64,000 nt of DNA, taken from Candidatus Latescibacterota bacterium (GTDB lineage: Bacteria; Latescibacterota; UBA2968). Both the position numbers and the translations under genes were made by a program. Position 1 is the stretch's first letter; the number at the start of each line of letters is the position of its first letter. This document shows positions 40,526 to 63,729 of this stretch, one piece after another. The notes beneath the pieces are model-generated. The model searched no databases. It saw only the letters and a program-made list of their open reading frames with translations, and was not told the DNA's origin. Location of the stretch: positions 2,656,001 through 2,720,000 of the forward strand of contig OZ241986.1 in NCBI GenBank assembly GCA_965204375.1, written 5' to 3'.

Positions 40526-42146
<1,621 letters not shown>

Positions 42147-45449: not shown

Positions 45450-45544
45450 AGAGTAAGCAAACGGGCAAAATGTGTCAACCGCCCATTAGTAAAATGGACC
45501 ATCCCAAGCGCGTAATTGACAGTCTCTGATTTCCTGTTTACATT
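45450..45544. promoter_or_regulatory. Divergent sigma70 promoter pair
   Basis: Minus: TTGACA(45478)-17-TACTCT. Plus: TTGACA(45516)-17-TACATT. Confidence 0.6.
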
Positions 45545-45580
45545 GTGCAGAGGCTCATAGCAATTCTCATTGGAGTCATC

Positions 45581-46015
45581 ATGGCACAAGCAGAAATTGG
45601 CGACCGCGTCCAGATTTACTACAAGGGCATCCTGGAAGACGGAACCATAGCCGAAGGTACACCTGAGAACGAACCATTTGAATTTACAATGGGGGACGAA
45701 TCTGTAAAAGATATATTCACGCGCCTTGTAAACGGCATGGAAGAAGGCGACTCTCGCACGGTGATCCTATCTCCGGAAGATGCGTTTGGCCCCTATAATC
45801 CCGACTTTGTAATCGAAGTTGCGCGATCAAAATTCCCTCCTGATGCACTCCTCGAAAAGGGAATGCGCATGGAAGTACAGTCCGACCCCAATGGTACACC
45901 CATCGAAGTATCCGTCAAAGAAATAACATCCCAAACCGTTACATTAGATGGCAACCATCCCTTTGCGGGAGAAGAAATTACTATGACGATTCAATTGTTA
46001 GAGATTGTGGTTTAG
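45581..46015 (+). CDS. FKBP-type peptidyl-prolyl isomerase (SlyD/SlpA-like, no His tail)
   Basis: YKGILEDG, PEDAFG, LDGNHPFAG. Confidence 0.9.
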   Translation: MAQAEIGDRVQIYYKGILEDGTIAEGTPENEPFEFTMGDESVKDIFTRLVNGMEEGDSRTVILSPEDAFGPYNPDFVIEVARSKFPPDALLEKGMRMEVQSDPNGTPIEVSVKEITSQTVTLDGNHPFAGEEITMTIQLLEIVV

Positions 46016-48406
46016 TTGTACGAACGCATATCCGATGGAAAGGAACTTAGCAAAGTGAAAATAGATGAGACTGCACAATTCTGGAGAACTAAAAAACTTA
46101 GCGTCCGTGCATCCAATTGTCTGGCAAAAGCAGATATTGCAAACGAACAAGAGCTAATCAAAAAATTCACAACCCTTGATAGTCTAATTGCTCTCAGAAA
46201 TTGTGGCAGAAAAACAGCCGAAGAGATATGGAAATTTCTCACAAACTTAAAATTTGTCTCCAACTACGATCAGGAAACCGAAATTACATCGTTCAATTCG
46301 AGCAATAAGTATTCGCCCCAAACGCAATCGGTCTTTATCCCGCTTCTGAACATAAAAGTATCTGGTCAAACATGGGAAGCTCTTCAAAAAATTCCGGTCA
46401 ACAATATCCTATGGAGTGTTCGAACTCAAAACATTCTCCTTGTGCAAGGCTTCAAAACACTTGCCGAGATTGCTGAACTTTCCGCCAAACAATGGCTCAA
46501 ATTTAAGAATTTCCGACGCAAATCTCTGATCGAGATTCAGGAGACAGTCAATAGAATTATAGAAAACCCTGATATGTTTAATCCAGATGATGAGCATTCT
46601 GATCTGGATCCTAATCATTCTGTTAAATCACAATGGTTCTTTATACCGCTCTTAAACATAAAAGTATCTGTTCGCACATGGGCAGCTATTCAAAAGACTC
46701 CCGTCAACAGTATCCAATGGAGTGTTCGAACAAGAAATGTGATCAAGCAGCAGGGACTACAACAACTTGCCGACCTATGCCAATTTTCATCAGAGGAATG
46801 GCTCAGTTTTAGAAACTTCGGAAGTACCTCTTTGACTGAACTTCAAGTACGCTTGACCAAAACAGTCAAGCAACTTGGAGCCAATCTTGATATGCTTGAC
46901 CCGACCGATGAGGATTCTGATCCACGTCCTGAACATTCTAGCAAAGAGCAACCGCCGGTCTTTATCCCACTTCTGAACATAAAAGTATCTGGTCAGACAT
47001 GGATAGCTCTTCAAAATAGATCTATTCATCAATTAACCTGGAGTGTTCGGACCCAAAATATTCTCCTTGCACAAGACTTCAAAACACTTGCCGAGATTGC
47101 CAAACTTTCTCCCAAACAATGGCTCAAATTTAGAAATTTCGGGCGCAAATCCCTGACCGAAATTCAGGAAACAGTCAATAAAATTATAGCAAATCCCGAT
47201 GTGCTTGATCCGAAAACTGAGTATTCCGTGGAAGTATCACAGATTCAGACACTGACTGAACTCGGTCATGTGGTTTTTCAACGCCTGCAAATTCGCCAAC
47301 AGGAAGTTGTTAAATACTACCACGGTTATGACGAAACACCTAAAAACTTACAGCAAATTGGTGAATTACTTGGGTTTACTCGTGAGTACGTCAGACAAAT
47401 TAAGAAGACAGTCAACAACAAACTCAATCAGGGCGTGGACAATTATCTAATCACAACCACCATCTTCCGTCTTTTGAGCAAGTCTATCCGCTATATTCTA
47501 TCACAGTATGGCGGATTCTGTTCTGTCGAAAAACTCCAAGAAATTATTCGTCAGCGGTTGAGATGGGGAAATAGCGAACAGTGGATTATAAACTGGTTTA
47601 ATGAAGCATTCGGCGAGGCGTGGATATGCTCAGGAGCAGACGATTATAAAATTGTTGATGGTGTCTGCTATCTGAAATCGGGAGAATCCTTTCAGGACTT
47701 TTTAATACAACTCGCATCGAGACTCCAACATTACGGTTATCGACCATTGGCATTGGAAGAATGCCAAAATCTCATTGCAAAAATGGACGGAGCAGTATAC
47801 AACTGCGACAGCAGTTCAATAGCTTTCGATTCAAGTCGGTTGCTCGATGTAATTACCAGCTATCCCAGCTTAAAAGTTTATCGGTATGGTAAAACACACA
47901 TCGGACTAAAAGCATGGACCTGGTTCAATCCTGAAAAACCAATGACTGCCGCAGGACAAGCTTCACTCATCGAATGGTATCTCCGAATGACTAATGAGCC
48001 AGCCACGGCAAAAGAGATTGCCAATGGGATAGGGAGCCAACTTGGCAATTTCAGGTTGACGTCTTTCGACGTTGCCGATATTTGCGAAAAACACCCCTAT
48101 CGCTTTCAAGTTGATGACAATGGTGCCTACGGCTTACACCTTTGGGAAGAATCTTCAAAATATCGACAAGACCTCACAGAATTACTTTCAGATGAACCAT
48201 TATCTATTGAACAGATTGTAGAGGTATTATCCGCCCCAGAACCGGCTGATACGTTGCTAATTGTTGCAGCATTAAACTTTTCAGATTCGTTTGTAGAAAC
48301 GGTGCCTTTCGAGTGGGTATTAAAGCCACAGACGGGCACTATTAAAACGGAAGATGATTTCGATTATACCAATCTTACTTTTGAAGACTTAATACCTAAA
48401 TTATGA
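46016..48406 (+). CDS. Protein with 4 RNAP alpha-CTD-like repeats, sigma70 region-4 HTH and HARE-HTH-like C-terminus
   Basis: LSVRASNCL...RNCGRKTAEEI plus three WSVRTxN...NFxxxSLxE(I/L) repeats; RQQEVV...NLQQIGELLGFTREYVRQI; RFQVDDNGAYGLHLWE; start may be GTG 46055. Confidence 0.8.
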   Translation: MYERISDGKELSKVKIDETAQFWRTKKLSVRASNCLAKADIANEQELIKKFTTLDSLIALRNCGRKTAEEIWKFLTNLKFVSNYDQETEITSFNSSNKYSPQTQSVFIPLLNIKVSGQTWEALQKIPVNNILWSVRTQNILLVQGFKTLAEIAELSAKQWLKFKNFRRKSLIEIQETVNRIIENPDMFNPDDEHSDLDPNHSVKSQWFFIPLLNIKVSVRTWAAIQKTPVNSIQWSVRTRNVIKQQGLQQLADLCQFSSEEWLSFRNFGSTSLTELQVRLTKTVKQLGANLDMLDPTDEDSDPRPEHSSKEQPPVFIPLLNIKVSGQTWIALQNRSIHQLTWSVRTQNILLAQDFKTLAEIAKLSPKQWLKFRNFGRKSLTEIQETVNKIIANPDVLDPKTEYSVEVSQIQTLTELGHVVFQRLQIRQQEVVKYYHGYDETPKNLQQIGELLGFTREYVRQIKKTVNNKLNQGVDNYLITTTIFRLLSKSIRYILSQYGGFCSVEKLQEIIRQRLRWGNSEQWIINWFNEAFGEAWICSGADDYKIVDGVCYLKSGESFQDFLIQLASRLQHYGYRPLALEECQNLIAKMDGAVYNCDSSSIAFDSSRLLDVITSYPSLKVYRYGKTHIGLKAWTWFNPEKPMTAAGQASLIEWYLRMTNEPATAKEIANGIGSQLGNFRLTSFDVADICEKHPYRFQVDDNGAYGLHLWEESSKYRQDLTELLSDEPLSIEQIVEVLSAPEPADTLLIVAALNFSDSFVETVPFEWVLKPQTGTIKTEDDFDYTNLTFEDLIPKL
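46334..47210 (+). repeat. Three ~310-bp intragenic repeats encoding alpha-CTD-like units
   Basis: TTTATCCCGCTTCTGAACATAAAAGTATCTGG-type unit at 46334, 46640, 46961; copies 1 and 3 most alike. Confidence 0.9.
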
Positions 48407-50046
48407 AAGGTTCACATCGCATGGTTTTGCCACAACATCAACAACCCATAACTATTCGACTTGCACGGAAAGCAGACATTGAAGGCGCGAAACGAATTGC
48501 GGACCAAAACCGATCAGAATTGGGATTTGTCAACATCGCCATTTTACAGGTAGCACAAAGCAAGGGCTGGCTACTTGTTGCAGCCGAATGGGAAGATCAG
48601 AGAAAGCATGATATGGTCATTGGCTTTGCAAACTTCCGAATTAGACAGGATAGAAATGCAACGCTGTATGAAATAGCAGTAGCTGATACACACAGGCGCA
48701 CAGGTGTCGGTACCCGTTTACTGAGCGAATTAATCCGACGTGTTCACCTTGCAGGAGGACAATATATTCGTCTCAAGTGCCCTGACGACCTAGATTCTAA
48801 TCAGTTTTACCAAAAATGCGGATTTCGGCATGTCGAAACGGAACAAGGGAAAAAAAGACGACTCCATGTGTGGCACTACCATATCCCCCCGACGCACGGC
48901 AAAGAGATAGAAACTTTCTCGATTACTTCACCTAATTCCATGGTTGATGAGAGGGAGACAAGGCATCCCATTGGATGGGAGGTCGAATCTCACATACCCG
49001 CGCATTTCTACGCTTCTTTGACTGTTTCACCGGATCAAATGAGAACATTGCACCACCTCTGGCATGAACATGCACACAATTTTGATTGGAAATTTGGCAA
49101 ATCGAATCCATTTCAACGAGTACTCATCTCGCCTGTCGTTGCTAGCAAGCAGACCTTTGATTTTGTGAGAGAACTAAAACGGACGGGTGAAACGGAAGTA
49201 GCCATGTTTGATTCTGGTGGCTATTTCGTCCAAAAGGGAGATATTTCTTACTACGATCTACATCGAAAACTCTATGAATGCTATAAGCGAGAGGATTGGG
49301 CGGATATATACGTTTTACCAGATAATCCGCCACTCAGCAAAGATTCGCTGAGTTCCGCTGAAGCGAAGATAAAACAAACTGTTGAAGGTAGCTTGCGCCT
49401 TTATAATGACCTTTCCGACACAATTCAGCAGCGGGCGATGCCCGTCGTTCACGCAACGAAAAGTGAACATCTCGACTATTGCCTGCGACATTACAAAAAT
49501 TTTAAAAAAATTGGGTTCGGCTCATTTCCCACAAGTGGGACTTCGAACTCTATCAACCGATTGAACATCAATGCACTGATGATTCTCCAACGGCTGACTC
49601 GAATGCTGAATTCTGACGGTGTTAAAATACATACTTTCGGTATTTCAACACCGCCCGCAATCTATCTGCTGTCATTGGTCGGTGTGCATTCGTTTGATTC
49701 CAATGGATGGATGCGCTCAGGTGGCTATGGCAAGGTCTTCCTACCATTTATGCGGGGTTATATGGTCACTTTTAATTCTCGAAATAATGGGAGTTTGAAT
49801 GAAGCGGAATTTAAATTATGGAAAGAAAACATACAGCATGATTGTCCGTTCTGTGATTCTTTTGATCGGCTTTCCAACAACCGATGGGATCGGATTATGC
49901 ACAATTTAATCGTTATGGCAGAATTGGAAACGCATCAGCGAACACCTCAAATGGATATGTTACAAGAGTTATCAGGAGCTTACTATCGTATGTCGGAAAG
50001 CTTAATAGGTGAAGACTTGTGGCCTATTAGTAATCACGACCTTTAA
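48403..50046 (+). CDS. GNAT acetyltransferase fused to a TGT-fold (DpdA-like) transglycosylase
   Basis: GNAT: YEIAV..HRRTGVGTRL, SNQFYQKCGF. TGT: MFDSGGY, VLPDNP, MPVVH, IHTFG, SFDSNGW, HDCPFC...HNL. ATGA overlap with upstream gene. Confidence 0.85.
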   Translation: MKGSHRMVLPQHQQPITIRLARKADIEGAKRIADQNRSELGFVNIAILQVAQSKGWLLVAAEWEDQRKHDMVIGFANFRIRQDRNATLYEIAVADTHRRTGVGTRLLSELIRRVHLAGGQYIRLKCPDDLDSNQFYQKCGFRHVETEQGKKRRLHVWHYHIPPTHGKEIETFSITSPNSMVDERETRHPIGWEVESHIPAHFYASLTVSPDQMRTLHHLWHEHAHNFDWKFGKSNPFQRVLISPVVASKQTFDFVRELKRTGETEVAMFDSGGYFVQKGDISYYDLHRKLYECYKREDWADIYVLPDNPPLSKDSLSSAEAKIKQTVEGSLRLYNDLSDTIQQRAMPVVHATKSEHLDYCLRHYKNFKKIGFGSFPTSGTSNSINRLNINALMILQRLTRMLNSDGVKIHTFGISTPPAIYLLSLVGVHSFDSNGWMRSGGYGKVFLPFMRGYMVTFNSRNNGSLNEAEFKLWKENIQHDCPFCDSFDRLSNNRWDRIMHNLIVMAELETHQRTPQMDMLQELSGAYYRMSESLIGEDLWPISNHDL

Positions 50047-50056
50047 CGGAGAAACT

Positions 50057-50899
50057 ATGGCACGGTCACACATCTTAAAAGGATTTTCAGATTTGGAGTC
50101 GGCATTGTGGGTTCACAAATACTACCCCGGACTTACAATTCGGCAAATGATCAAAAGAGCTTTGGAAAACGGTTACTCAGTAACAGATACCGCACGTTAT
50201 GAAGCAGTTCAGCTATTAAGCGAGTGGGGATTGGCGGATGGAAAAGGCCGATCATTAACTCCCGAAGGCCAGGCTTTCTATTCTCTATGGGAAACAAAAC
50301 GAAGTACCGCAATTGATTTTTTACACGGACGACAATACGGCTTATGGACCCAAAATCACCCCGACCAAAACATCGCTTCGTGGGCATATAAAAACATCTG
50401 TGACTACCTGTGGACACAGCAAACGCTTCCAGACAAAGATCGAGACCTGGTGTCTTACATCAATGATCTTCGTACTTCCGACGAAGTGGTGATTCCACCG
50501 GATACGGGTAATGCGTTCTCCAATAAGTCAATTAAAGACGCTTACGATTGGCTCCTACCATTAGATCCACCTGTCTTAGCTAACGGAGGAGTTGAGCACA
50601 GATCACTTAAAGACGCGATATTCACACAAAGAGCATTCTGTTCGACATTACTTTTTATGATGGGACTCGGTTATATTGTGCGAGAATCTGACACGGCATT
50701 TGGGGATCTGGTCAAAATTGACGATACGCGAAAACAGGCCATTTGTCGCTTCTGTCTCATCAGCGAAACCGGTTTCGATCTCATGCTTGACGAGGCACTA
50801 CGTCAGGTCTCTTACTCGTGCCTTTCGGTACAGCGGGACTGGGACGGGATTTACATGGTGTTGAATCAAGAGCCTGAGGTCAGGGACTTTATTGATTGA
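50057..50899 (+). CDS. Hypothetical winged-helix protein (BrxA-like position)
   Basis: GGAG SD then ATG 50057; LLSEWGLADGKGRSLTPEG wHTH-like pattern. Confidence 0.55.
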   Translation: MARSHILKGFSDLESALWVHKYYPGLTIRQMIKRALENGYSVTDTARYEAVQLLSEWGLADGKGRSLTPEGQAFYSLWETKRSTAIDFLHGRQYGLWTQNHPDQNIASWAYKNICDYLWTQQTLPDKDRDLVSYINDLRTSDEVVIPPDTGNAFSNKSIKDAYDWLLPLDPPVLANGGVEHRSLKDAIFTQRAFCSTLLFMMGLGYIVRESDTAFGDLVKIDDTRKQAICRFCLISETGFDLMLDEALRQVSYSCLSVQRDWDGIYMVLNQEPEVRDFID

Positions 50900-51122: not shown

Positions 51123-51656
51123 ATGCTCTGGCAATCTTACCATAGAAAACTGCTTGCATTGGCGGAAACCAGCGAGACTTTGACAGTTTCTCAGCAAACG
51201 GTCTGTCAGTTTTTGCGACAAGAGATTGGAGACTATCAGCAGCGTATCAATCTCTGGGGAAATCCAGGAGTCGGTAAAACGTTTCTCGTTCACCATCTCC
51301 ATCACTGTGCAGAAGGTCTCTATTTTTCATCTGTGGAAAATCGTCCAAGCACAGAAATTTCCCCAAATTCAGTGGTTATCATTGATAACGCACCATCTGA
51401 CCGAAGTTTGACGCGTTCCACCTTTGGGGATACGCTTTGGGCTGGCGCATCATCGGTAATTCTGGTAACACGCCAACCAATTGATGATGCGGTTCGGAGA
51501 ATTGAGTTGGCCCTGACAGATAGAGATAGGGCGCAAATTGAGGATGTGATGGGTAGGCTTTTCTCTCATTTGCCACCAGATAAGGTGCGCGATTTTGAAC
51601 GCTACCGCTCAGGAATTTGGGAACAACTTAAGGTGTTAGTAGAACAGGCGAGATAA
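51123..51656 (+). CDS. Small P-loop ATPase (BrxB-like position)
   Basis: INLWGNPGVGKT (Walker A), VVIIDN (Walker B), VILVTR. Confidence 0.75.
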   Translation: MLWQSYHRKLLALAETSETLTVSQQTVCQFLRQEIGDYQQRINLWGNPGVGKTFLVHHLHHCAEGLYFSSVENRPSTEISPNSVVIIDNAPSDRSLTRSTFGDTLWAGASSVILVTRQPIDDAVRRIELALTDRDRAQIEDVMGRLFSHLPPDKVRDFERYRSGIWEQLKVLVEQAR

Positions 51657-51693: not shown

Positions 51694-54600
51694 ATGGCTT
51701 TAGAAGAGATCCGTCAGAAAAGAACTGTGATTGATACGCCAAGAGCATCAGACCTCGCGGCGAGACCCGACGAATGGGAAAACCGTTTTCAATTTCACGT
51801 CTCAACGCATGTCACGCTTGCAGATATGACCGATAAGTGGGATGCCATTCTTAAAAATCTCCTACAAGGGCGTTCGGCAACCGGACTCATCCATGCTGAT
51901 ACAGGATATGGCAAAACCTCAACAGCAGCCGCACTTTGGCATTATGCCGAAAAACGTGATGTAGTCACTGTGCCACCTTTTGCGTGGAATAGCATTGCTG
52001 ACATGCTCATCGCAACGCACGGTTGGGTCTGTCATCGCTTGAAGGTGACCAGACCGGATCTAATTTCTGATTTAGACCAAGAATATAAAACGCTGATTGC
52101 AAGTAGTAATGAAGATAGAGCGCTCAGAATAAGCCAAGAAGAAGAAGTTCCACTCGATTATGCTCGAAAGTCTGTCCAGTCCCTCAAAGCAAGGGGAGAT
52201 TTAACGGATGAGGTTTCCGCGAATCGTCTCATTGACTACCTGCTAAAGGCAACTTCAACGGTTCTTGAGGCAGACTACAAAGGGTTGCTTATTCTGCCAG
52301 ATGAGTTCGAACTTTTTGCCAATACGAACCCAGACATCGCCAAGAATTTTTCTGAACTCAAAGATTTTATTTTTTCGCTCTATCAAGAAGAGAATCTCCC
52401 AGTCGGCTGTGTGGTTCTGACCTACCGCCGAACATTTTCAACAATCCAAAACAGGGAACCTCACATAGTCGCACGTTTCAACCAGCCTCCAGGGAGTTCA
52501 ACGGACCTTGAGCAAGAATATGGAAAAATTGAAAACGGCAAATCTTTCGCCCACGAACTTTGGGAAAAGTTATCTATTACTTGTGACCTATCCAACGAGG
52601 AGCAAAATGCTATTGATCCAGATGTGCTGTTTGCCCTCGGACAATTTTTGGGGCATCAACGCACAACCCAACTGATTAGTGGCCCCAGGTCCGTTGTCGC
52701 GACGTTGCAACGAGCAGCTATTCACTACACTGAAACGCAACAGCCATATTCAATTTTCGATTTTTGTAAAGATTATATCTCTCAAGGCATCATCTGCTTC
52801 AACAACCAAGAAATCGACGCGGTCAAAGCCTATACCTCAATCATGAGCCAACCCATCATCGACGGTAACGAGGCGAGGCAACAAGTCGTCAAACTCCTAT
52901 GCATCTGTCCAGATGGCGTGCCGGAGGCACTTTTCAAGAAGCACAACATTTCTGATAAAGATCGCGCAGCAGTTGTGAATAAGTTATTGGGTACACACGT
53001 TATTAGAAAAATCATCGGACCGACATTAACCCACTACAAGGATGATCTGCAGGCAGGCGACGCACTCATTGAACTCCTAAAAGTCCTGAGGGATCAGTAC
53101 AACCCCGCAAGTCCAGAAACGCATCGCGCCGCTGTCAGGTCATTTGCAAATTTCATTTTACCCGAAATCTTCACTCAGACTGTAGGAGCATCCTTTACTG
53201 GTTGGGGAGGACTGAAAAAGATGGAAGGAGATATTGAACCGATATTTCAGGCTGCCTTATCGGGCAGTTCTCTCCGAGATTATCCTGATCGGACACTGAC
53301 AGTCCATGTTGGCACTGAGGAATTCCAAGAAATTAGCGGTGCCTATCGTGAAAGCCAGTTGTTCACCTCCTTTATTCTTAATACTCAGCAGGATAAGCAC
53401 ATCCCAAATACCTGTGACATTCATGCAGACAAGGTCTGTTTTCACCTCAACATCTCTGAAGCTATCGACAAACTAGAAATCCCAAAAGATATTGGCAAAC
53501 TCGGCGATCTCTTTCTCCCCGAGTCTGTTACCCCTTCGCTACTCTTGTCGATGCTCGACTTCTTTGCTCAAGAAACCACTCTTGCCCAAATCAAGGAGTT
53601 AAAACAGGACGCGCAGGTGCAACTCTTGGAAACCCAAATTCGTAACCAATTGATCGGTTACTTCTTCTCCGCTGAGGTCAAGAAAAGTGCTGTATCACAA
53701 CAGGCAGATTTAGCACAAGTGCCTGCAGGGAAAAATTTTGTTGAACGGGCTTTAGGTGTACTGATACGAAAAAAATTCAAATCATATCGTGCCATAGCGA
53801 TCTCACATCAGTGGAAAAAAAATTTGGGGATCTACATGCAGGTATTGAGAGACGCCGAAAATCTCGGAGTAAGGAGAGGTGAGGAACCGGTTGAAATGAT
53901 TGGCAGAGATGTGCCAAGGTTGTTTAATGTTGGTCAGCACACCACTTTTTCTAATACCTTCTACCCAGACGGTATTTTGCGTGATCTTTTGCTCGTCAAT
54001 GAACTTGACGTCAATGGAAAAACCGTAGCGGAAGGAGTTGAGGTTAAAAATAATCAGGGATCCGTTGCGGTATATCTCAAACTCCATGACATGGAAAAGC
54101 GCATTTTGAAGAGGCTGGAGAAAAGCGAAGAAAGCATCGTCGTTGATGGCAAGAGCACAGAAGCAATAAAATGCCACGAGATTTTCCAGCAGGAAGCAAA
54201 GTTTGGATATCTCAATGATGAAATTGAGGAGTTAATAAAAGTATTGACAGCAAGAGGATTAGTTGACCAAAAACAACAGCAAGGGAGGGATTACCTGTAT
54301 TGTGTTGAGACAGAAATCAATTTCGCCGAACTGCAAAGCAAATTCCAACGGCTTGAGGAAATTGAGGCACTGGCAAAATCAAATGGCTTCACCCCGGAAA
54401 GAGAAGGGAATAACTCGCTATCATCGGTTGGAGCAGATTTGCAGACAACCGGCATTGAGTTCGATGAAGTTCGCAAGGATTCATTACGGCAAAAACTCAA
54501 TTCCATTGAGCACGCTTTCACAACGCAGTGTGCAAGGTGGCTGGATACGGAAAAACAACGAGCCAATCAGAAACGCCATGAAATTGAGCCGTTGCGCCTT

Positions 54601-55779
54601 GATATTCCTAAAGTACTTGATGAAAAAACGGGACACCCATTGACAGAGTTTTCGACACTCCTGTTTAATAATATTCGCAGTGAGGTCAGGAAAGCGTATA
54701 CAGCTATCTCTGATCAAGTTTCCGCTTTACAGAATGAAGTCAAGAACACACTAAACGGAAAGTTACAAAAATACTACATGGAGGGTAGAAGTTCTGAAAC
54801 AGCAATTGACGTTGCGGCACAACTTCGGGACTTCTGCGGCGTGATTGATACAAAAATCGGTGTACTGCGGACTTCTCAAAAAAAGGCTGAACAACTTTAC
54901 ACATTTTTTGAGAAATGGCGCACGCTTGCCAGACAGATAGAAAATGATCGGCAAATGATGCACGATGCAAACTCCAACGATGCTATCAACAATCTTATTG
55001 GCCGGTTAGATACAGAACAGCAACAAATCAAAAAACATCTCGCTAATCGGACATTGAGTCTGAGCCAAGTCCTTGAAAATCATGAACACTTCGCCAAACG
55101 ATTCTTAGAAATCAAGGATGAATACGATCAGATTACTGCTAACCGGAGGGATGAATTTATCAAATTCCAAGCTGAAATTGAAAAGGAACTCAATGAATTG
55201 CTTGAAAAGCCTCATATCGGAGAACCCTACAATCCGTTAGACGAAGATGGATCCTACCGCCGAGTCCAGGAAAAAGTAGTTGAAAGAATTCAAGAATTCA
55301 GTGAAAAGGCAGTTAAGAGTGTTCAAGCCATCATGAGCGATCTGATGAAACCAATCGAAGTTTTCGAAGTCAAGCCCAAGGTCAAAAATGATGCTATGGC
55401 TTTGCAAGAGAAGCTCTCAGCATTAGAAATTCGGATCAGTCATATTGATCGGAAACTAAAACCTAATGGTATTGAGGATCAATTGTCCGAGTTAGTTCAA
55501 TCTTTGCTTAAAATGAGAGAAGAAGGTACAGAGTTGGTGCAGCAATGGGAAGATATTCAAGGTCAGTTAAGATGTGACAAGAGTGAGTTAAGTCCCAAGG
55601 CAAGAGCACTGTTGGACCTGATTGAAATGGATACAGACAAAGATTTCACAGAACTTATTATTGATCTCAGGCAGTCTGGAAATGAAATGTTTGGTTCGAC
55701 TTCAGAGATTATCGAGAGTCTGGAAGAATTATATCAATACAATTGGCTGAACATCAAAATCTCACGCACAACTGCATAA
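51694..55779 (+). CDS. Large BrxC-like P-loop ATPase with coiled coils
   Basis: 1361 aa; ADTGYGKTS, LLILPDEFE, SGPRSVV; long helical C-half; terminal wHTH-like LEELYQYNWLNIKI. Confidence 0.75.
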   Translation: MALEEIRQKRTVIDTPRASDLAARPDEWENRFQFHVSTHVTLADMTDKWDAILKNLLQGRSATGLIHADTGYGKTSTAAALWHYAEKRDVVTVPPFAWNSIADMLIATHGWVCHRLKVTRPDLISDLDQEYKTLIASSNEDRALRISQEEEVPLDYARKSVQSLKARGDLTDEVSANRLIDYLLKATSTVLEADYKGLLILPDEFELFANTNPDIAKNFSELKDFIFSLYQEENLPVGCVVLTYRRTFSTIQNREPHIVARFNQPPGSSTDLEQEYGKIENGKSFAHELWEKLSITCDLSNEEQNAIDPDVLFALGQFLGHQRTTQLISGPRSVVATLQRAAIHYTETQQPYSIFDFCKDYISQGIICFNNQEIDAVKAYTSIMSQPIIDGNEARQQVVKLLCICPDGVPEALFKKHNISDKDRAAVVNKLLGTHVIRKIIGPTLTHYKDDLQAGDALIELLKVLRDQYNPASPETHRAAVRSFANFILPEIFTQTVGASFTGWGGLKKMEGDIEPIFQAALSGSSLRDYPDRTLTVHVGTEEFQEISGAYRESQLFTSFILNTQQDKHIPNTCDIHADKVCFHLNISEAIDKLEIPKDIGKLGDLFLPESVTPSLLLSMLDFFAQETTLAQIKELKQDAQVQLLETQIRNQLIGYFFSAEVKKSAVSQQADLAQVPAGKNFVERALGVLIRKKFKSYRAIAISHQWKKNLGIYMQVLRDAENLGVRRGEEPVEMIGRDVPRLFNVGQHTTFSNTFYPDGILRDLLLVNELDVNGKTVAEGVEVKNNQGSVAVYLKLHDMEKRILKRLEKSEESIVVDGKSTEAIKCHEIFQQEAKFGYLNDEIEELIKVLTARGLVDQKQQQGRDYLYCVETEINFAELQSKFQRLEEIEALAKSNGFTPEREGNNSLSSVGADLQTTGIEFDEVRKDSLRQKLNSIEHAFTTQCARWLDTEKQRANQKRHEIEPLRLDIPKVLDEKTGHPLTEFSTLLFNNIRSEVRKAYTAISDQVSALQNEVKNTLNGKLQKYYMEGRSSETAIDVAAQLRDFCGVIDTKIGVLRTSQKKAEQLYTFFEKWRTLARQIENDRQMMHDANSNDAINNLIGRLDTEQQQIKKHLANRTLSLSQVLENHEHFAKRFLEIKDEYDQITANRRDEFIKFQAEIEKELNELLEKPHIGEPYNPLDEDGSYRRVQEKVVERIQEFSEKAVKSVQAIMSDLMKPIEVFEVKPKVKNDAMALQEKLSALEIRISHIDRKLKPNGIEDQLSELVQSLLKMREEGTELVQQWEDIQGQLRCDKSELSPKARALLDLIEMDTDKDFTELIIDLRQSGNEMFGSTSEIIESLEELYQYNWLNIKISRTTA

Positions 55780-58201: not shown

Positions 58202-58492
58202 ATGCAAACTCCAACAAAAGAATGGATACACAAGGCGGTGGATGGGCTTCCTGATCAAGAGACAGAACAACTGAAAGACTACCTCGAATTTCTAACCTGG
58301 AAAGCCAAGGAGAAGAAATCATCGTCGGAGCAAAGAAAAAAAAATCCGACTGCGCAACGCATTATCAAAGCAATGGAAAAACCGCCCTATGTCACGCATG
58401 AAGACATCGAATCACTTTTACAAGTGATCAAAGAAGCAAAGCAACCGACACATTTTGAGTCACCCTTTGAGTCGGATGAGCAAAAAGATTAA
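58202..58492 (+). CDS. Putative antitoxin
   Basis: AAGGAG SD; 96 aa; TAATG overlap with PIN gene. Confidence 0.65.
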   Translation: MQTPTKEWIHKAVDGLPDQETEQLKDYLEFLTWKAKEKKSSSEQRKKNPTAQRIIKAMEKPPYVTHEDIESLLQVIKEAKQPTHFESPFESDEQKD

Positions 58493-58911
58493 TGAGCAGA
58501 TATCTATTAGAAACCACAACTTGTAGCCGCTTGATGGAAAATGAACCCACCGTCAAGAGGCATTTGGAATCTCTGACCGATTTGGACTACTCCTTCACTA
58601 TTCCTATCGTCCACGGAGAGATACTGTATGGGATTGAACGGTTGCCAAAAGGAAAAAGAAAGCGAGATATTTCGCAGAGGGCCAATCGTCTTTTTTCCGA
58701 AATTCAATGCGACCCCATTCCAAAAGAAACGGCCACCCACTACGCAAAACTCAAACGGCAAGCCGAGGGACAGGGAACCTCCGTCGCAGAAAATGACCTC
58801 TGGATCGCTGCGACAGCTCTGGCGTTAGATGCGATTCTGGTGACTTCTGATACTGATTTTCAGAGGATTCAGGGATTGTTGGGTTTGCAGTTAGAGGATT
58901 GGACTACTTGA
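58492..58911 (+). CDS. vapC: PIN-domain VapC toxin
   Basis: YLLETT, GEILYG, ENDLWIAATAL, LVTSD.DF, LEDW. Confidence 0.88.
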   Translation: MSRYLLETTTCSRLMENEPTVKRHLESLTDLDYSFTIPIVHGEILYGIERLPKGKRKRDISQRANRLFSEIQCDPIPKETATHYAKLKRQAEGQGTSVAENDLWIAATALALDAILVTSDTDFQRIQGLLGLQLEDWTT

Positions 58912-58932: not shown

Positions 58933-60063
58933 ATGTGTTTTAGAAAACCTGGCTGGACCAGTTTTTTGCGACACCAGGGTCCCGATTTTCTCAAATGGAT
59001 TGAGAAAGAAAATATTCTATTGAGGAAATTTGATGCATTAGCGACAGCACTATATTCACTACTAAAGGCTCGTATCAATACAACCGAGGCCGCTCAGGCT
59101 GTCTGGAGAACTGTTCCAGATGTATTGGCTCGCTGTAACGAACAAGACACCTATGAAAAGCCGGGAGCATTTGATGCATACGCTTGGCTACACTTGTTAG
59201 AACGCTATGTCCGAACCTGGCTCGCTCTGGAAAAACTTGTAGAGGCGTGTTGCCTTCCATTAGCAAAGCACGGGATACGTGCTTTGGATGTGGGAACTGG
59301 CCCTGGCCCATCCGCATTTGCGGTTCACGACTTTTACAGTGCTATGACCGAATTTTCTGAACAGACAGGTAATTTGAAATGGAGACAACCCGCCAAGGTC
59401 ACTCCTGTCGATCTTAGCCATAGCACCAATGAGCTACGATATCAGCTCGAACAGTCTCTACGAAAATCGGAAAAAGTAATTATACAATACGACGTCTTGC
59501 CGAATTTTGGCAACATTATGCCAAGGCAAGAACGTGAAGCACTCAGAGAACGTTTACTTTATGAGGACGTGTACTTCGATGAAGACCATGGTGAGGAAGA
59601 ATCTTGGTACTCGGCAGATGAGATCAATCACATAGTTCAATCTTTGCATCGATACCGCCTGATTACATTTAGTAACTTTCTTACTACTGAGGATACGGTA
59701 AACAAATTCAGACCTAATCTTGACGGTATTTTTCGCGATGCCCGTACAGGCACTGTCATCCTGGTACTTGGCGGCAAAGGAAAAAAGTATCAAAAAATAT
59801 ATAAAAAGTTGGACTGCATAGCTGAACAGACAGGATTTCAACGGAAAGTTGTCGAGGAAAGAATATCTGCCAAAGACAGCGGACTCGCCGAACGAATCTA
59901 CAAAGAAGGCTGGCGATTTTACAAACACCTCCAATGCCTCGCTCCAAATGAAAACCCTAAGGCAAGGGAGACACGAAAAGTATGTCAAGAGTTTAAAAAC
60001 GGAAAACTGTGTTTCCATTCCAGTCAGCTACGCGCATACCGAAAATACCGCTATACAATGTAG
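58933..60063 (+). CDS. SAM-dependent methyltransferase-like protein (Rsm22-like motif)
   Basis: ALDVGTGPGP motif I, VDLS, LITFSNFL, GTVILVLG. Confidence 0.6.
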   Translation: MCFRKPGWTSFLRHQGPDFLKWIEKENILLRKFDALATALYSLLKARINTTEAAQAVWRTVPDVLARCNEQDTYEKPGAFDAYAWLHLLERYVRTWLALEKLVEACCLPLAKHGIRALDVGTGPGPSAFAVHDFYSAMTEFSEQTGNLKWRQPAKVTPVDLSHSTNELRYQLEQSLRKSEKVIIQYDVLPNFGNIMPRQEREALRERLLYEDVYFDEDHGEEESWYSADEINHIVQSLHRYRLITFSNFLTTEDTVNKFRPNLDGIFRDARTGTVILVLGGKGKKYQKIYKKLDCIAEQTGFQRKVVEERISAKDSGLAERIYKEGWRFYKHLQCLAPNENPKARETRKVCQEFKNGKLCFHSSQLRAYRKYRYTM

Positions 60064-60338: not shown

Positions 60339-60848
60339 ATGTGGCATCAATTGGGAATCATCGCGCTTGGTATCGCGCTATATGCGTGTGGCCCCGATGT
60401 TCAATTGGTAAAAGATGAACACGAAGAGTATTATGTGTATTGGGATGACGCCCACAAACGGTATTTCAGACATGGGTTATACCAGTCATTTTACGAAAGT
60501 GGTCGCCAGCGATCGGTTGGCAAATACGAACAAGACATAAAAGTAGGTATTTGGACACACTGGTATGAAAACGGGCAAAAACAGGGAGAAATGGACTGGG
60601 TAGATGGCAAGCCCGAAGGCGTAGTGACAGAATGGTACAAAAACGGACAGCAAAAAAATACGGGAACGTGGGAAAATGGTGGGCGACATGGTCTCTCGAC
60701 CTGGTGGTATGCAAACGGACAAAAGCAAAAAGAAGTGAACTACATAGAGGGAGAACCCGACGGAATCTGGACGTATTGGGATTCGACAGGTGTAATAACA
60801 AAAAAGCAGTACTGGGATCGCGGTGCATTCTTACGGGTTGACGAATAG
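60339..60848 (+). CDS. MORN-variant repeat (YwqK-like) lipoprotein
   Basis: Lipobox LYAC; repeated WYENGQK...G...G..T.W units. Confidence 0.85.
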   Translation: MWHQLGIIALGIALYACGPDVQLVKDEHEEYYVYWDDAHKRYFRHGLYQSFYESGRQRSVGKYEQDIKVGIWTHWYENGQKQGEMDWVDGKPEGVVTEWYKNGQQKNTGTWENGGRHGLSTWWYANGQKQKEVNYIEGEPDGIWTYWDSTGVITKKQYWDRGAFLRVDE

Positions 60849-60963: not shown

Positions 60964-63729
60964 ATGGCAGACAAAACCCTGTACTTATTAGACGGCATGG
61001 CACTGGTCTATCGCGGGCATTTTGCAATGATACGCAATCCGCGGATGACATCGAAAGGACTGAACACCTCGTCGTTATTCGTCTTTGCCAATACCCTATT
61101 GGATATTTTGGGCAACACACAGCCCTCGCATTTGGCCGTGGTCTTCGACACGCCAGAACCGACATTTCGGGACGAGATATACAAAGAATACAAGGCACAA
61201 CGAGAAAAAATGCCCGAAGACATAAGTGGCGCGCTACCCTACATCAACCAAATGTGTGAAGCGTTCAACGTGCCCGTCATCCGCAAACCCGGCTATGAAG
61301 CCGACGACGTAATCGGCACACTGGCAAAAATAGCCGAAAAGGACGACTTCACAACGTATATGGTAACCCCCGATAAAGACTACGCACAACTCGTCTCAAA
61401 CAAGACATTCATCAGCAAACCTGGACGCACGGGCGATGGCGCTGAGATTTTAGGCGTTCCGGAGGTACTGGAACAATGGGAAATAGAGCGTGTGGATCAG
61501 GTCATCGACATGTTGGGACTGATGGGTGATTCGAGTGATAATGTGCCGGGCATACCGGGCATAGGGCCAAAAACCGCACAAAAACTGATCGCCCAATACG
61601 ACAGTGTGGAGGGACTACTCGACCACATTGATGAATTGAAAGGCAAACAAAAAGAAAATGTAGAGACATATCGCGATCAGGCCCTACTATCAAAGGAATT
61701 GGTCACCATCCATCTCAACGTACCCTTGGACTTTGGATTAGATGACCTCGCGGTAAAAAAACGAGACGAACAAAAATTGAAAACCCTGTTCGCAGAACTG
61801 GAATTCAGCACACTGGGCAAGCGGCTATTTGGAAATGATTTTAATATAGATCAGCAACAGATCTCGCTCTTCGGCGATGATACAGCGCTGGACGGCGTAT
61901 CAACACACAAAACCATTGCAGATGTCGAACACACATACCACCTCGTAGATACGCCGGAAAAGCGCGCATCATTGATCAAAAAATTGGCACAGCAAAAGGC
62001 GTTTTGTTTTGATACAGAAACAACGGGACTAAACCCGAGAACATGTGAATTGCTCGGCCTCGCCTTTTCATTTCAACCGCACACGGGATATTACGTGCCA
62101 ATGCCAGAAGACCCGGATAAAAATAAGGCCGTATTGGAAGAATTCCGCGGCATTCTGGAAAATCCTGACACGGAGAAAATCGGGCACCATCTCAAATTTG
62201 ACCTCGCCGTCTTATTGTGGCAAGGCATCAGGGTTCAAGGGCCGTTTTTTGATACCATGCTCGCCGCTTATGTAACCGCACCTGAAATGCGTCTCAATAT
62301 GAATGCTCTATCGCTGGCATTATTGGATTATGAACCCATTAAAATTGAGTCTTTAATCGGCGAAAAAGAAAAAGGCAAAAAACAAAAAACCCTGCGCGAA
62401 GTCCCTCTGGACAAAGTAGCAGAATACGCGGCCCAAGATGCGGACATCACCTTGCAACTCGCCGAAGCTCTGCGTCCCAAAATCAAAGAAATGGGACAAA
62501 CGCGCGTATTTGAAGACATAGAATGCCCGCTGGTATCTGTACTGGCGCAAATGGAATACGAAGGCATTCGTATGGAAGCATCAGTTATCGAAGTACTCTC
62601 GGAAGATCTGAAAGATGAATTAGTCGCCATCCAAAGGCGTATTTACGACCTGGCCGATGAAACATTTAACCTGAACTCACCCAAACAATTGGGCGATATC
62701 CTATTTGAAAAATTAAAACTCGATCCCAATGCACCGCGCACAGGTAAGACAAAGCAGTATAAGACAGATGAATCAACTTTACAACGGTTGGAGCACAAAC
62801 ACGAGATAGTGAAGCAAATTTTGGATTATCGCACTTATGCAAAACTAAAATCCACCTATCTGGATATGTTGCCGGGAACCATCTTTAAAAATACCGGGCG
62901 CGTCCACACGCATTACGAGCAGGCCGTCACGGCCACCGGACGGTTGCAATCGCACGGACCAAATCTGCAAAATATTCCCATTCGCACGGAAAAGGGACGC
63001 GAAATTCGCAAAGCCTTTGTACCTCGCAATGAAAATTACACCCTCTTGTCAGCAGACTATTCACAAATTGAATTGCGCGTAGCGGCCGAACTGAGTCGAG
63101 ATGAAGAGATGCACAGGGCATTTCGGGAAGGGCTGGATATCCACGCGGCAACCGCAATGAAAATTTACGGATTGGATGAACGCGATGTAACCGACGACAT
63201 GCGTCGGCAAGCAAAAACCGTAAACTTTGGTATAATTTATGGAATTTCGGCCTTTGGCCTGGCGCAACGCCTGAATATTCCGCGCTATGAAGCCAGTAAT
63301 TTAATCGAGCAATATTTTGAACAATTTCCCGGTGCCAAAAAGTACATGGATGACACCATTGAATTTGCGCGAGAACACGGGTATGTGGAAACCATGGCGG
63401 GACGCAGGCGATATCTGCGGGATATCCACTCGCGCAATGCCACCACGCGCAAAAGTGCCGAGCGCAACGCAATCAACTCGCGGATTCAGGGTTCAGCGGC
63501 CGACATGATTAAAATTGCGATGCGCCGCGTCCAGGATGCCTTGTTTGAACGGGACTTAAAAACGCGCATGCTGCTACAAGTACACGACGAACTCGTCTTT
63601 GACATGCACAAAGACGAAGCCGATATCGTGATGCCACTAATCGAAGACGCGATGAAAAATGCCCTGCCAATGTCCGTGCCAATTGTCGTGGAAATGGGCA
63701 TGGGAAATACCTGGCTGGAAGCGCATTGA
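60964..63729 (+). CDS. polA: DNA polymerase I
   Basis: 5'-3' exo (EADD, GDSSDN), 3'-5' exo (FDTETT), polymerase motifs DYSQIELR, KTVNFGIIYG, QVHDE. Confidence 0.98.
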   Translation: MADKTLYLLDGMALVYRGHFAMIRNPRMTSKGLNTSSLFVFANTLLDILGNTQPSHLAVVFDTPEPTFRDEIYKEYKAQREKMPEDISGALPYINQMCEAFNVPVIRKPGYEADDVIGTLAKIAEKDDFTTYMVTPDKDYAQLVSNKTFISKPGRTGDGAEILGVPEVLEQWEIERVDQVIDMLGLMGDSSDNVPGIPGIGPKTAQKLIAQYDSVEGLLDHIDELKGKQKENVETYRDQALLSKELVTIHLNVPLDFGLDDLAVKKRDEQKLKTLFAELEFSTLGKRLFGNDFNIDQQQISLFGDDTALDGVSTHKTIADVEHTYHLVDTPEKRASLIKKLAQQKAFCFDTETTGLNPRTCELLGLAFSFQPHTGYYVPMPEDPDKNKAVLEEFRGILENPDTEKIGHHLKFDLAVLLWQGIRVQGPFFDTMLAAYVTAPEMRLNMNALSLALLDYEPIKIESLIGEKEKGKKQKTLREVPLDKVAEYAAQDADITLQLAEALRPKIKEMGQTRVFEDIECPLVSVLAQMEYEGIRMEASVIEVLSEDLKDELVAIQRRIYDLADETFNLNSPKQLGDILFEKLKLDPNAPRTGKTKQYKTDESTLQRLEHKHEIVKQILDYRTYAKLKSTYLDMLPGTIFKNTGRVHTHYEQAVTATGRLQSHGPNLQNIPIRTEKGREIRKAFVPRNENYTLLSADYSQIELRVAAELSRDEEMHRAFREGLDIHAATAMKIYGLDERDVTDDMRRQAKTVNFGIIYGISAFGLAQRLNIPRYEASNLIEQYFEQFPGAKKYMDDTIEFAREHGYVETMAGRRRYLRDIHSRNATTRKSAERNAINSRIQGSAADMIKIAMRRVQDALFERDLKTRMLLQVHDELVFDMHKDEADIVMPLIEDAMKNALPMSVPIVVEMGMGNTWLEAH

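Follow-up and report, generated by a model that had tools for sequence, protein, structure and literature searches.

What does a protein assembled from the DNA-binding modules of RNA polymerase (RNAP) do at the head of a defence operon? The question is raised by an open reading frame (ORF) in a 64,000-nt stretch of Candidatus Latescibacterota DNA (assembly GCA_965204375.1, contig OZ241986.1, positions 2,656,001 to 2,720,000, forward strand; this whole stretch is called the window below), which an earlier reading made from the letters alone (the sequence-only reading) had described as a mosaic of RNAP subunits. A sequence check of the window showed that the ORF is open and genuine. Its product belongs to a rare, hitherto undescribed protein family that adds an RNAP-derived, lineage-specific eighth part to the BREX-Related Capture (BRC) system. 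The protein looks like a ready-made targeting arm borrowed from RNAP. We lean, tentatively, towards regarding it as a clade-specific, non-enzymatic DNA-targeting adaptor subunit of the BRC system.

The N-terminal part is an array of RNAP alpha-subunit C-terminal domains (alpha-CTDs). The Pfam model RNA_pol_A_CTD (PF03118) matched four stretches of the protein (whole-protein E 4e-48), and in a six-frame search of the genome each unit alone passed the curated cut-off (39.5-53.6 bits versus 23.8). The single further match in the rest of the 6.3-Mb genome was the ordinary rpoA gene, which is encoded separately elsewhere. The units carry the motifs SVRASN, SVRTQN, SVRTRN and SVRTQN, starting at residues 29, 134, 236 and 343, and the hairpins GRKT, RRKS, GSTS and GRKS, respectively, just as the sequence-only reading had recognized. 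It had also asked whether these repeats fold as alpha-CTDs, and they do: in an AlphaFold2 model of residues 14-399 (mean pLDDT 65) four helical units sit on disordered linkers, and a Foldseek search of this model against the PDB returned almost exclusively RNAP alpha subunits or isolated alpha-CTDs, 3N97 and 1LB2 being among the matches. The model units fitted solved alpha-CTDs with TM scores of 0.82-0.91 (target-normalised) and root-mean-square deviations (rmsd) of 0.9-1.2 Å over 55-60 residues; the E-values were weak (at least 0.03), because one small domain was aligned against a 386-residue query. Units 2-4 are direct DNA repeats of 306-321 nt with 70-84% identity, which are too diverged for Tandem Repeats Finder to detect the array in the gene. 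Each of these three units is preceded by an element, FIPLLNIKVS..TW..LQ, that has no counterpart in the Pfam alpha-CTD model; its predicted structure is a beta-hairpin followed by a helix, and it may extend the alpha-CTD domain specifically in this family. NCBIfam rpoA models matched only with their C-terminal ends, far under cut-off, and with these profiles no RpoA N-terminal dimerisation/core-assembly domain was found.

Comparison with the host RpoA, to whose alpha-CTD the units are 33-40% identical, revealed which surfaces have been kept. The sample comprised 148 units in 43 family proteins, from which 134 full-length units were compared with host RpoA and 14 partial ones were dropped. Agreement with RpoA reached 0.99 at R, 0.87 and 0.93 at the two N, 0.91 at G and 0.98 at E, and the kept positions read in context S-V-R, N, L, R-N-F-G, S-L and E. 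The acidic positions ahead of the motif agreed with RpoA in just 0-0.04 of the units, and the stretch aligned to RpoA T-E-N-E-M was shared in 0-0.40. In E. coli numbering, we take the kept set to be the '265 determinant', which contacts UP-element DNA, and the lost sets to be the '261' (sigma contact) and '287' (activator contact) determinants. The alpha-CTD units have a net charge of +3 to +6, and the linkers of -1 to -6.

The array is followed by a helix-turn-helix (HTH) of sigma-70 region 4, and here too the sequence-only reading was right: the Pfam model Sigma70_r4 (PF04545) matched residues 422-470 above its cut-off (32.8 bits versus 24.1, E 5e-8). Chains of sigma region 4 were among the PDB sequence matches, and the alignment to solved sigma factors spans region 4.1 through 4.2. 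Against region 4.2 of five host sigma factors, the module is 40-44% identical over 46-50 residues; one of these five closest is a 550-aa protein that is probably the primary sigma factor, and the remaining four matching host sigma factors are 28-38% identical to the module. The helix form [ST]RER[VI]RQ[IL]K was found in 38 of the 43 close and 7 of the 14 distant relatives, the window protein reading TREYVRQIKK, and the corresponding helix reads the -35 hexamer in primary sigma factors. Neither Sigma70_r2 nor Sigma70_r3 matched the whole protein at E<=0.01 (Pfam), and all NCBIfam sigma-factor models scored far under cut-off. Being without regions 2 and 3, the protein is not a sigma factor. Judged by these alignments, selection has kept each alpha-CTD unit intact on the side that touches DNA, and likewise the sigma-4 recognition helix, while the protein-contact faces have drifted, a pattern that suggests that the N-terminal arm is a multivalent DNA binder.

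In folds and DNA-contact residues, the modules are the same as RNAP alpha-CTD and sigma-70 region 4 on UP and -35 DNA. Unlike RNAP, the window family holds 2-6 copies of the former plus one of the latter in one chain and has neither the N-terminal domain of alpha nor regions 2-3 of sigma, and its units have not kept what is presumably the acidic patch by which alpha-CTD touches sigma. This bears on the alternative that the protein is a decoy or guard, displaying copies of alpha-CTD and sigma-4 whose modification or binding by a phage protein would switch on the BRC effectors. Alpha-CTD and sigma region 4 are the RNAP parts most often attacked by phages, T4 Alt/ModA targeting R265 of alpha-CTD and T4 AsiA targeting sigma region 4. 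Both modules in the window protein are true homologues of these parts, the Arg equivalent to R265 is the nearly invariant one among the units (0.99), and multiple copies would form a sensitive bait. However, the units share just the 33-40% identity given above with the host alpha-CTD, the sigma-contact and activator-contact patches are lost and the DNA-contact surface alone is conserved, and the hosts, which are uncultured, have no known phage counterpart. In addition, viral-labelled clusters of alpha-CTD plus sigma-4 proteins in a language-model Atlas, which serve as a lead only, fit a plain DNA-binding cassette on both sides. We consider the decoy account very unlikely. The sequence-only reading had offered two functions, a DNA scanner or a bait; the scanner gains from the kept DNA-contact residues and the basic units, and the bait found no positive support.

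Beyond the sigma-4 module lies a C-terminal part of about 320 residues, in which no Pfam families were found; nor were there PDB sequence relatives other than alpha-CTD and sigma. In a model of residues 400-796 (pLDDT 64), the sigma-4 helices are succeeded by three modules of helix plus hairpin and by one helical domain, and Foldseek gave weak matches to the tandem winged-helix proteins UFL1/DDRGK1, SelB WH1-4 and ESCRT-II, as well as to RNAP delta (2krc; probability 0.89, weak E of 0.22). The best-modelled part of this array is the third winged HTH (wHTH, residues 635-714), which VIA-align identified as a winged helix, with a Zalpha-like protein as the best match (Z 10.7, rmsd 1.5 Å, 66 aligned residues); RNAP delta 9a6y (RpoE; Z 7.5, rmsd 3.2 Å, 71 aligned) ties with many generic winged helices. 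Pfam HARE-HTH (PF05066) matched nothing in residues 466-796 even at E<=10, and it was absent among the 25 listed families (of 64 matched) when 40 family members were scanned at E<=1. A distant relative, P0050, does have a HARE-HTH match (E 3.7e-8), immediately upstream of the shared region, and such a match occurred in just 1 of 41 genomes of relatives. In the Atlas, 18 of 30 feature matches were HARE-HTH-bearing clusters (0.94), but the recognition value of the query was low. Thus, the C-terminal array consists of winged helices, possibly HARE-HTH-like ones. The sequence-only reading had seen a motif like RNAP-delta/HARE-HTH here: winged helices are indeed present, but a delta/HARE-HTH identity is not established, with no Pfam match and with fold matches that are weak or tied. 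As this assignment is insecure, the picture of a mosaic of three RNAP subunits is weakened.

The same evidence bears on a further alternative, in which sigma-4 binds the beta flap and delta-like winged helices assist, so that the protein couples BRC to transcription complexes on invader DNA. Although the sigma-4 alignment reaches into region 4.1 and one wHTH weakly resembles the RNAP delta fold, sigma regions 2 and 3 are absent and the delta/HARE-HTH likeness is shared with generic winged helices, and we regard binding to RNAP as very unlikely.

In charge, the C-terminal parts are acidic (net charge -5 for wHTH-C, -8 for domain D and -4 for the tail), and the protein ends in a peptide, ..NLTFEDL(I/M)PKL, that is present in 38 of the 43 close and 11 of the 14 distant relatives. 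This peptide looks like a putative docking tip in the style of the SSB tail. Being acidic with an invariant tip, the C-terminal third would be suited to holding a protein. No catalytic family was matched in profile searches of the protein with Pfam, PADLOC and NCBIfam, in agreement with the sequence-only reading, which had seen no catalytic domain. Kinship of the C-terminal module with two proteins, the 296-aa protein at the BrxA position of the operon and the 123-aa product of the first gene of a Haloplanus locus described below, was considered and rejected (hhalign probabilities of 0.4% and 0.1%, respectively).

The machinery that the protein would serve is encoded immediately downstream. 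Comparative genomics defined the BRC systems as recently as 2026, and their mechanism is so far proposed: according to the main text of the defining paper (Nucleic Acids Res. 2026, PMC12839542), which reports them in 45 taxa, HerA draws the DNA of an invader to a PglZ complex of BREX type, whereas self DNA may be marked by GNAT/TGT. The six genes after the ORF match the component set published there, with the 296-aa protein and the 177-aa P-loop NTPase standing at the DUF4007 (BrxA-like) and STAND NTPase positions, respectively. HerA/FtsK, a short PglZ and a BrxC-like ATPase occur together, and the GNAT and tRNA-guanine transglycosylase (TGT) modules are both present, here as one fused protein (Acetyltransf_1 E 1.7e-12, TGT E 2.1e-5). 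A locus on the Haloplanus sp. HW8-1 plasmid NZ_CP098519.1 (L039, 103166-124451) encodes five homologues of the window proteins in the same order, which confirms the BRC core. Among them, the TGT-like gene product is 38% identical to the fusion, the 296-aa protein is homologous to the gene product at the same position (E 1e-16), and the BrxC-like ATPase shares 22% identity, over 1186 aa, with a protein annotated 'BREX system ATP-binding domain-containing protein'. At the NTPase position the Haloplanus locus carries an AAA gene, and the gene with which it opens is unrelated to the alpha-CTD protein.

As published, BRC has seven components, none of which is described in the main text of PMC12839542 as an alpha-CTD or sigma-4 protein; the window operon adds one. 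That main text nowhere uses the terms alpha-CTD, RpoA, HhH or helix-hairpin-helix, although the supplementary tables of the paper may list the gene, and 'RNA polymerase' appears there three times, referring to BrxL or PglW where the passages show it. A literature search for tandem alpha-CTD proteins in defence systems found none.

The sequence-only reading had supposed that the gene is coupled to the neighbouring cluster, and several observations strongly support this. Of 168 phylum genomes sampled, 9 have the C-terminal module, precisely these 9 also have the PglZ gene, and the other 159 carry neither. The seven genes stand in identical order at 6/6 loci compared by tblastn, and in two further genomes the C-terminal module and PglZ share a strand and are separated by about 7.1-7.4 kb, which is also the arrangement in the window. 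Finally, the stop codon of the gene overlaps the start of the next (ATGA). The distribution is patchy, since the carriers, all from a single class, make up 4 of the 21 genomes of one genus and 5 of the 31 of another. What lies upstream changes from locus to locus, with UbiD at three, DUF6785 at one and an FKBP isomerase plus housekeeping genes here, suggesting that the alpha-CTD gene is the 5' edge of a moving unit. Transfer between phyla was considered and rejected, because the contig of L002 (titled Gemmatimonadetes; also L002 / G118 / G168) was placed in the window's own class. The label of the L002 record and the placement of its genome disagree; the closest titled relatives of the window genome are Latescibacteria/Latescibacterota.

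Within this unit, the family varies mainly in the length of its array. A word-based search found 43 proteins at E <= 0.001 (42 strong relatives and one weak), and a HMMER search with the C-terminal profile against 1.84 billion representatives recovered 26 clusters only. Counted in the 38 close relatives whose C-terminus is intact, alpha-CTD units numbered two in 7, three in 17, four in 10, five in 3 and six in 1, and the open frames across the nine carrier genomes range from 584 to 1021 codons. Distant members long enough to judge all have sigma region 4, and nearly all have at least one alpha-CTD, P0050 and P0057 being the exceptions. Mean pairwise identity across seven orthologous loci was 0.70-0.72 for the protein's domains and 0.78 for its tail, against 0.74 for the BrxC-like ATPase, 0.76 for the NTPase, 0.78 for PglZ, 0.82 for GNAT-TGT, 0.83 for the 296-aa protein and 0.91 for HerA; by this measure, the alpha-CTD protein appears narrowly the most divergent of the operon. 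A metagenome scan with the C-terminal alignment yielded a single 1.5-kb contig. No relatives were found in a scan of viral contigs, and a BFVD fold search gave no match at E<=0.001. A search for longer fused forms of residues 333-520 returned none, which is weak evidence given that the search was word-based.

Two known defence proteins share part of this architecture. PADLOC PglW matched residues 333-509 (E 3.2e-7, model positions 803-982) and NCBIfam PglW matched with E 2.4e-5, bearing out the parallel that the sequence-only reading had drawn. PglW of type 2 BREX is described in the main text of PMC12839542 as a kinase with an alpha-CTD-like domain, three wHTHs and a BrxB-like iSTAND domain. 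As in PglW, the last alpha-CTD, the sigma-4 HTH and the start of the wHTHs of the window protein follow one another, aligning at model positions ~800-985. Unlike PglW, which has tandem kinases and a single alpha-CTD, the window protein has four units and lacks the NERD nuclease, the kinase and the fused iSTAND domain, and at 22-27 bits versus a cut-off of 990 it is not a member of the PglW family. The NCBIfam model of MzaA (NF041931) matched at residues 353-466 (positions 579-697 of 726, E 3.5e-6); mzaA is called 'a sigma factor' of the validated anti-phage system mzaABCDE in the relevant passage of PMC9523054. Common to MzaA, at its C-terminal end, and the window protein is an alpha-CTD part followed by sigma region 4. 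However, the score was 26.2 bits against a cut-off of 800, and the remainder of MzaA and its partner genes are unrelated. The Atlas also holds clusters of 171-454-aa proteins with alpha-CTD plus sigma-4 from several bacterial phyla and viruses (0.82-0.89, a lead only), which lack the ~320-aa wHTH array and the terminal peptide of the window protein and for which no connection with BRC is noted. Together with the MzaA cassette, these small clusters suggest repeated recruitment into defence, and the comparison suggests that the alpha-CTD plus sigma-4 pair may be an old, widely used DNA-binding cassette rather than a one-off mosaic.

The domains present, the residues conserved, the strict linkage to BRC and the varying number of units were all observed directly; from them we infer DNA binding with a sequence preference for one end of the protein, and docking onto a partner for the other. 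The basic N-terminal arm, with its 2-6 alpha-CTD units, acidic flexible linkers and sigma-4 HTH, would bind DNA multivalently, gripping the A/T-rich minor groove plus a -35-like hexamer much as RNAP holds the upstream half of a promoter. The acidic C-terminal part, comprising the winged-helix array and the conserved terminal peptide, would dock onto the BRC machinery, most likely onto the sub-complex of the small BrxB-like NTPase and PglZ. This partner is proposed because PglW fuses alpha-CTD, three winged helices and a BrxB-like domain in one chain, whereas the BrxB-like NTPase is a separate gene in BRC. PglZ is stated in the title of PMC12205998 to form a sub-complex with BrxB. In this manner, target DNA would be reached, by way of the adaptor, by the BrxC-like ATPase together with the PglZ nuclease and the HerA translocase.

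A BrxR-like regulator of the operon, which would occupy an UP-like A/T tract plus a -35 element and repress or time the BRC genes, with the winged-helix part as signal input, is an unlikely account overall, yet one with several observations behind it. The gene is the first of its operon, its product has DNA-binding-type domains only and no enzyme domain, and its sigma-4 helix belongs to the type by which primary sigma factors read -35 elements. Upstream of the gene, L001 and L017 have AAAATTTATTTGACA-N17-TAATTT, that is, an A/T tract plus a perfect -35 (TTGACA). Moreover, the BrxA-like HTH components may also be regulatory, as the main text of PMC12839542 allows, BrxR is presented in PMC9122589 as a separable regulatory element of a BREX system, and the small alpha-CTD plus sigma-4 proteins of the Atlas, bacterial and viral, look regulator-like (a lead only). 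On the other hand, a protein of 783 aa with 2-6 repeat units and an extra array of ~320 aa far exceeds the known regulators of defence islands, and its strictly conserved terminal peptide and acidic C-terminal third suggest a protein partner. The stop/start overlap with the next gene suggests that output is matched to that of the next subunit, and inspection of the upstream regions of all seven loci, by eye only, revealed no common operator-like motif.

Several points weigh against the adaptor reading. A first-in-operon, enzyme-free binder of promoter-type DNA would fit a regulator too. The nine cases of linkage are not independent, since the loci with known context come from two genera of one class, and linkage was assessed at loci with known context, a set to which the neighbourhoods of the distant relatives P0046-P0059 do not belong. 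Unlike the window operon, the archaeal BRC of Haloplanus has no alpha-CTD gene, which indicates that the BRC core works without it and makes the protein an accessory add-on of one bacterial BRC lineage and not a core component. The excess of divergence over the BrxC-like ATPase and the NTPase is small, and both structure models are of moderate confidence (pLDDT 64-65).

A bolder form of the adaptor reading, which we hold to be quite unlikely, makes the protein a promoter-reading immune receptor, in which RNAP-free alpha-CTDs plus sigma-4 find DNA dense in UP and -35 elements, such as phage early regions. The bound DNA would then be passed to the PglZ/HerA capture machine, the number of alpha-CTD units setting the threshold; in a still bolder variant, the array would double as bait for phage proteins attacking alpha-CTD or sigma region 4. 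If the receptor idea were true, the cassettes of PglW (BREX type 2) and MzaA would be signs that bacterial immunity has a general 'promoter-sensing' arm, and the significance of the protein would climb sharply if it senses promoters or phage anti-RNAP factors. The natural range of 2-6 units offers a built-in series for relating valency to targeting, and if the protein is a regulator only, the finding remains a useful annotation of an unnamed family.

Table 1. Positions of the BRC operon, the parts of its alpha-CTD-array protein and the adjoining upstream features within the window.
Feature	Position	Strand	Remarks
Best sigma-70-like promoter match, TTGACA-17-TACATT	45516-45544	+	Upstream of the FKBP gene
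FKBP-type peptidyl-prolyl isomerase gene	45545-46015	+	Ends one base before the TTG of the alpha-CTD ORF
Alpha-CTD-array protein ORF	46016-48406	+	796 codons from TTG; first gene of the conserved seven-gene unit
Alpha-CTD unit 1	46076-46249	+	aa 21-78; distinct 'first-unit' type (SVRASNCL ... LRNCGRKT)
Alpha-CTD unit 2	46391-46564	+	aa 126-183; preceded by beta-hairpin + helix (FIPLLNIKVS..TW) and acidic linker
Alpha-CTD unit 3	46697-46870	+	aa 228-285
Alpha-CTD unit 4	47018-47191	+	aa 335-392; 72% identity to unit 2
FIPLLNIKVS..TW..LQ elements before units 2-4	46331-46393, 46634-46696, 46955-47017	+	aa 105-125, 207-227, 314-334
Sigma-70 region 4-like HTH	47252-47440	+	aa 413-475; Pfam 422-470; recognition helix TREYVRQIKK
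Three winged helices + helical domain	47441-48325	+	aa 476-770; third wHTH aa 635-714
Acidic tail with conserved terminal peptide DFDYTNLTFEDLIPKL	48326-48403	+	Putative docking motif
GNAT + TGT-like fusion (547 aa), BRC modification module	48403-50046	+	ATG overlaps the stop of the alpha-CTD gene (ATGA)
296-aa protein at DUF4007/BrxA-like position	50009-50899	+	No Pfam match
177-aa P-loop NTPase at BrxB-like STAND NTPase position	51123-51656	+	Walker A GVGKT; weak AAA_16 matches only
1361-aa BrxC-like ATPase	51694-55779	+	Homology to Haloplanus protein
Short PglZ-like protein, 376 aa	55793-56923	+	Weak Pfam, PADLOC and NCBIfam matches
HerA/FtsK-type ATPase, 402 aa	56936-58144	+	DUF87/HerA E 3e-20

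The ORF is probably translated from GTG at 46055 rather than from its first TTG, giving 783 aa: an AGGA lies 9-12 nt upstream of this codon, and the 93%-identical homologue P0002 has 783 aa. A scan of the region for promoters and terminators found sites no more numerous than in shuffled sequence. As the FKBP gene is not at that position in other loci, read-through of the operon from it may occur here only.

The Haloplanus BRC locus is flanked on one side by queC, queE and a 6-pyruvoyl-tetrahydropterin synthase-family (queD-type) gene; its other flank holds a GNAT gene of its own, a QueF-like gene and genes for a PD-(D/E)XK nuclease and a helicase. These flanking genes are good circumstantial evidence that BRC systems modify DNA with 7-deazaguanine. 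In the window, the BRC unit is preceded, at a distance of 4 kb, by a tRNA-guanine transglycosylase gene (40932-42071, minus strand; Pfam TGT E 1.8e-163) beside yajC, and queC is found elsewhere in the genome (G000:C1:137152-137796). With an ordinary tgt and queC in the genome, the preQ0 supply needed by a DNA-modifying TGT paralogue is present.

At one related locus, L016 (G001:C1:2455500-2475000), only residues 505-1359 of the 1361-aa ATPase are spanned by the best segment from tblastn, the gap between the NTPase and BrxC is wider than in other loci, and the BrxC-like gene may be disrupted or rearranged. Directly 3' of the HerA gene in the window, a small ORF (58202-58492, plus strand) is followed by a PIN gene (58492-58911, plus strand; Pfam PIN E 3e-18) with a stop/start overlap, and from its sequence the pair looks like a VapBC-type toxin-antitoxin. 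After the PIN gene comes a 376-aa protein without a family match (58933-60063); tblastn found none of these three genes in six related loci. A MORN-repeat protein (60339-60848, plus strand) and polA (60964-63729, plus strand) follow the island, and together with fmt, yajC, tgt and an M50 peptidase upstream they bracket the inserted defence unit.

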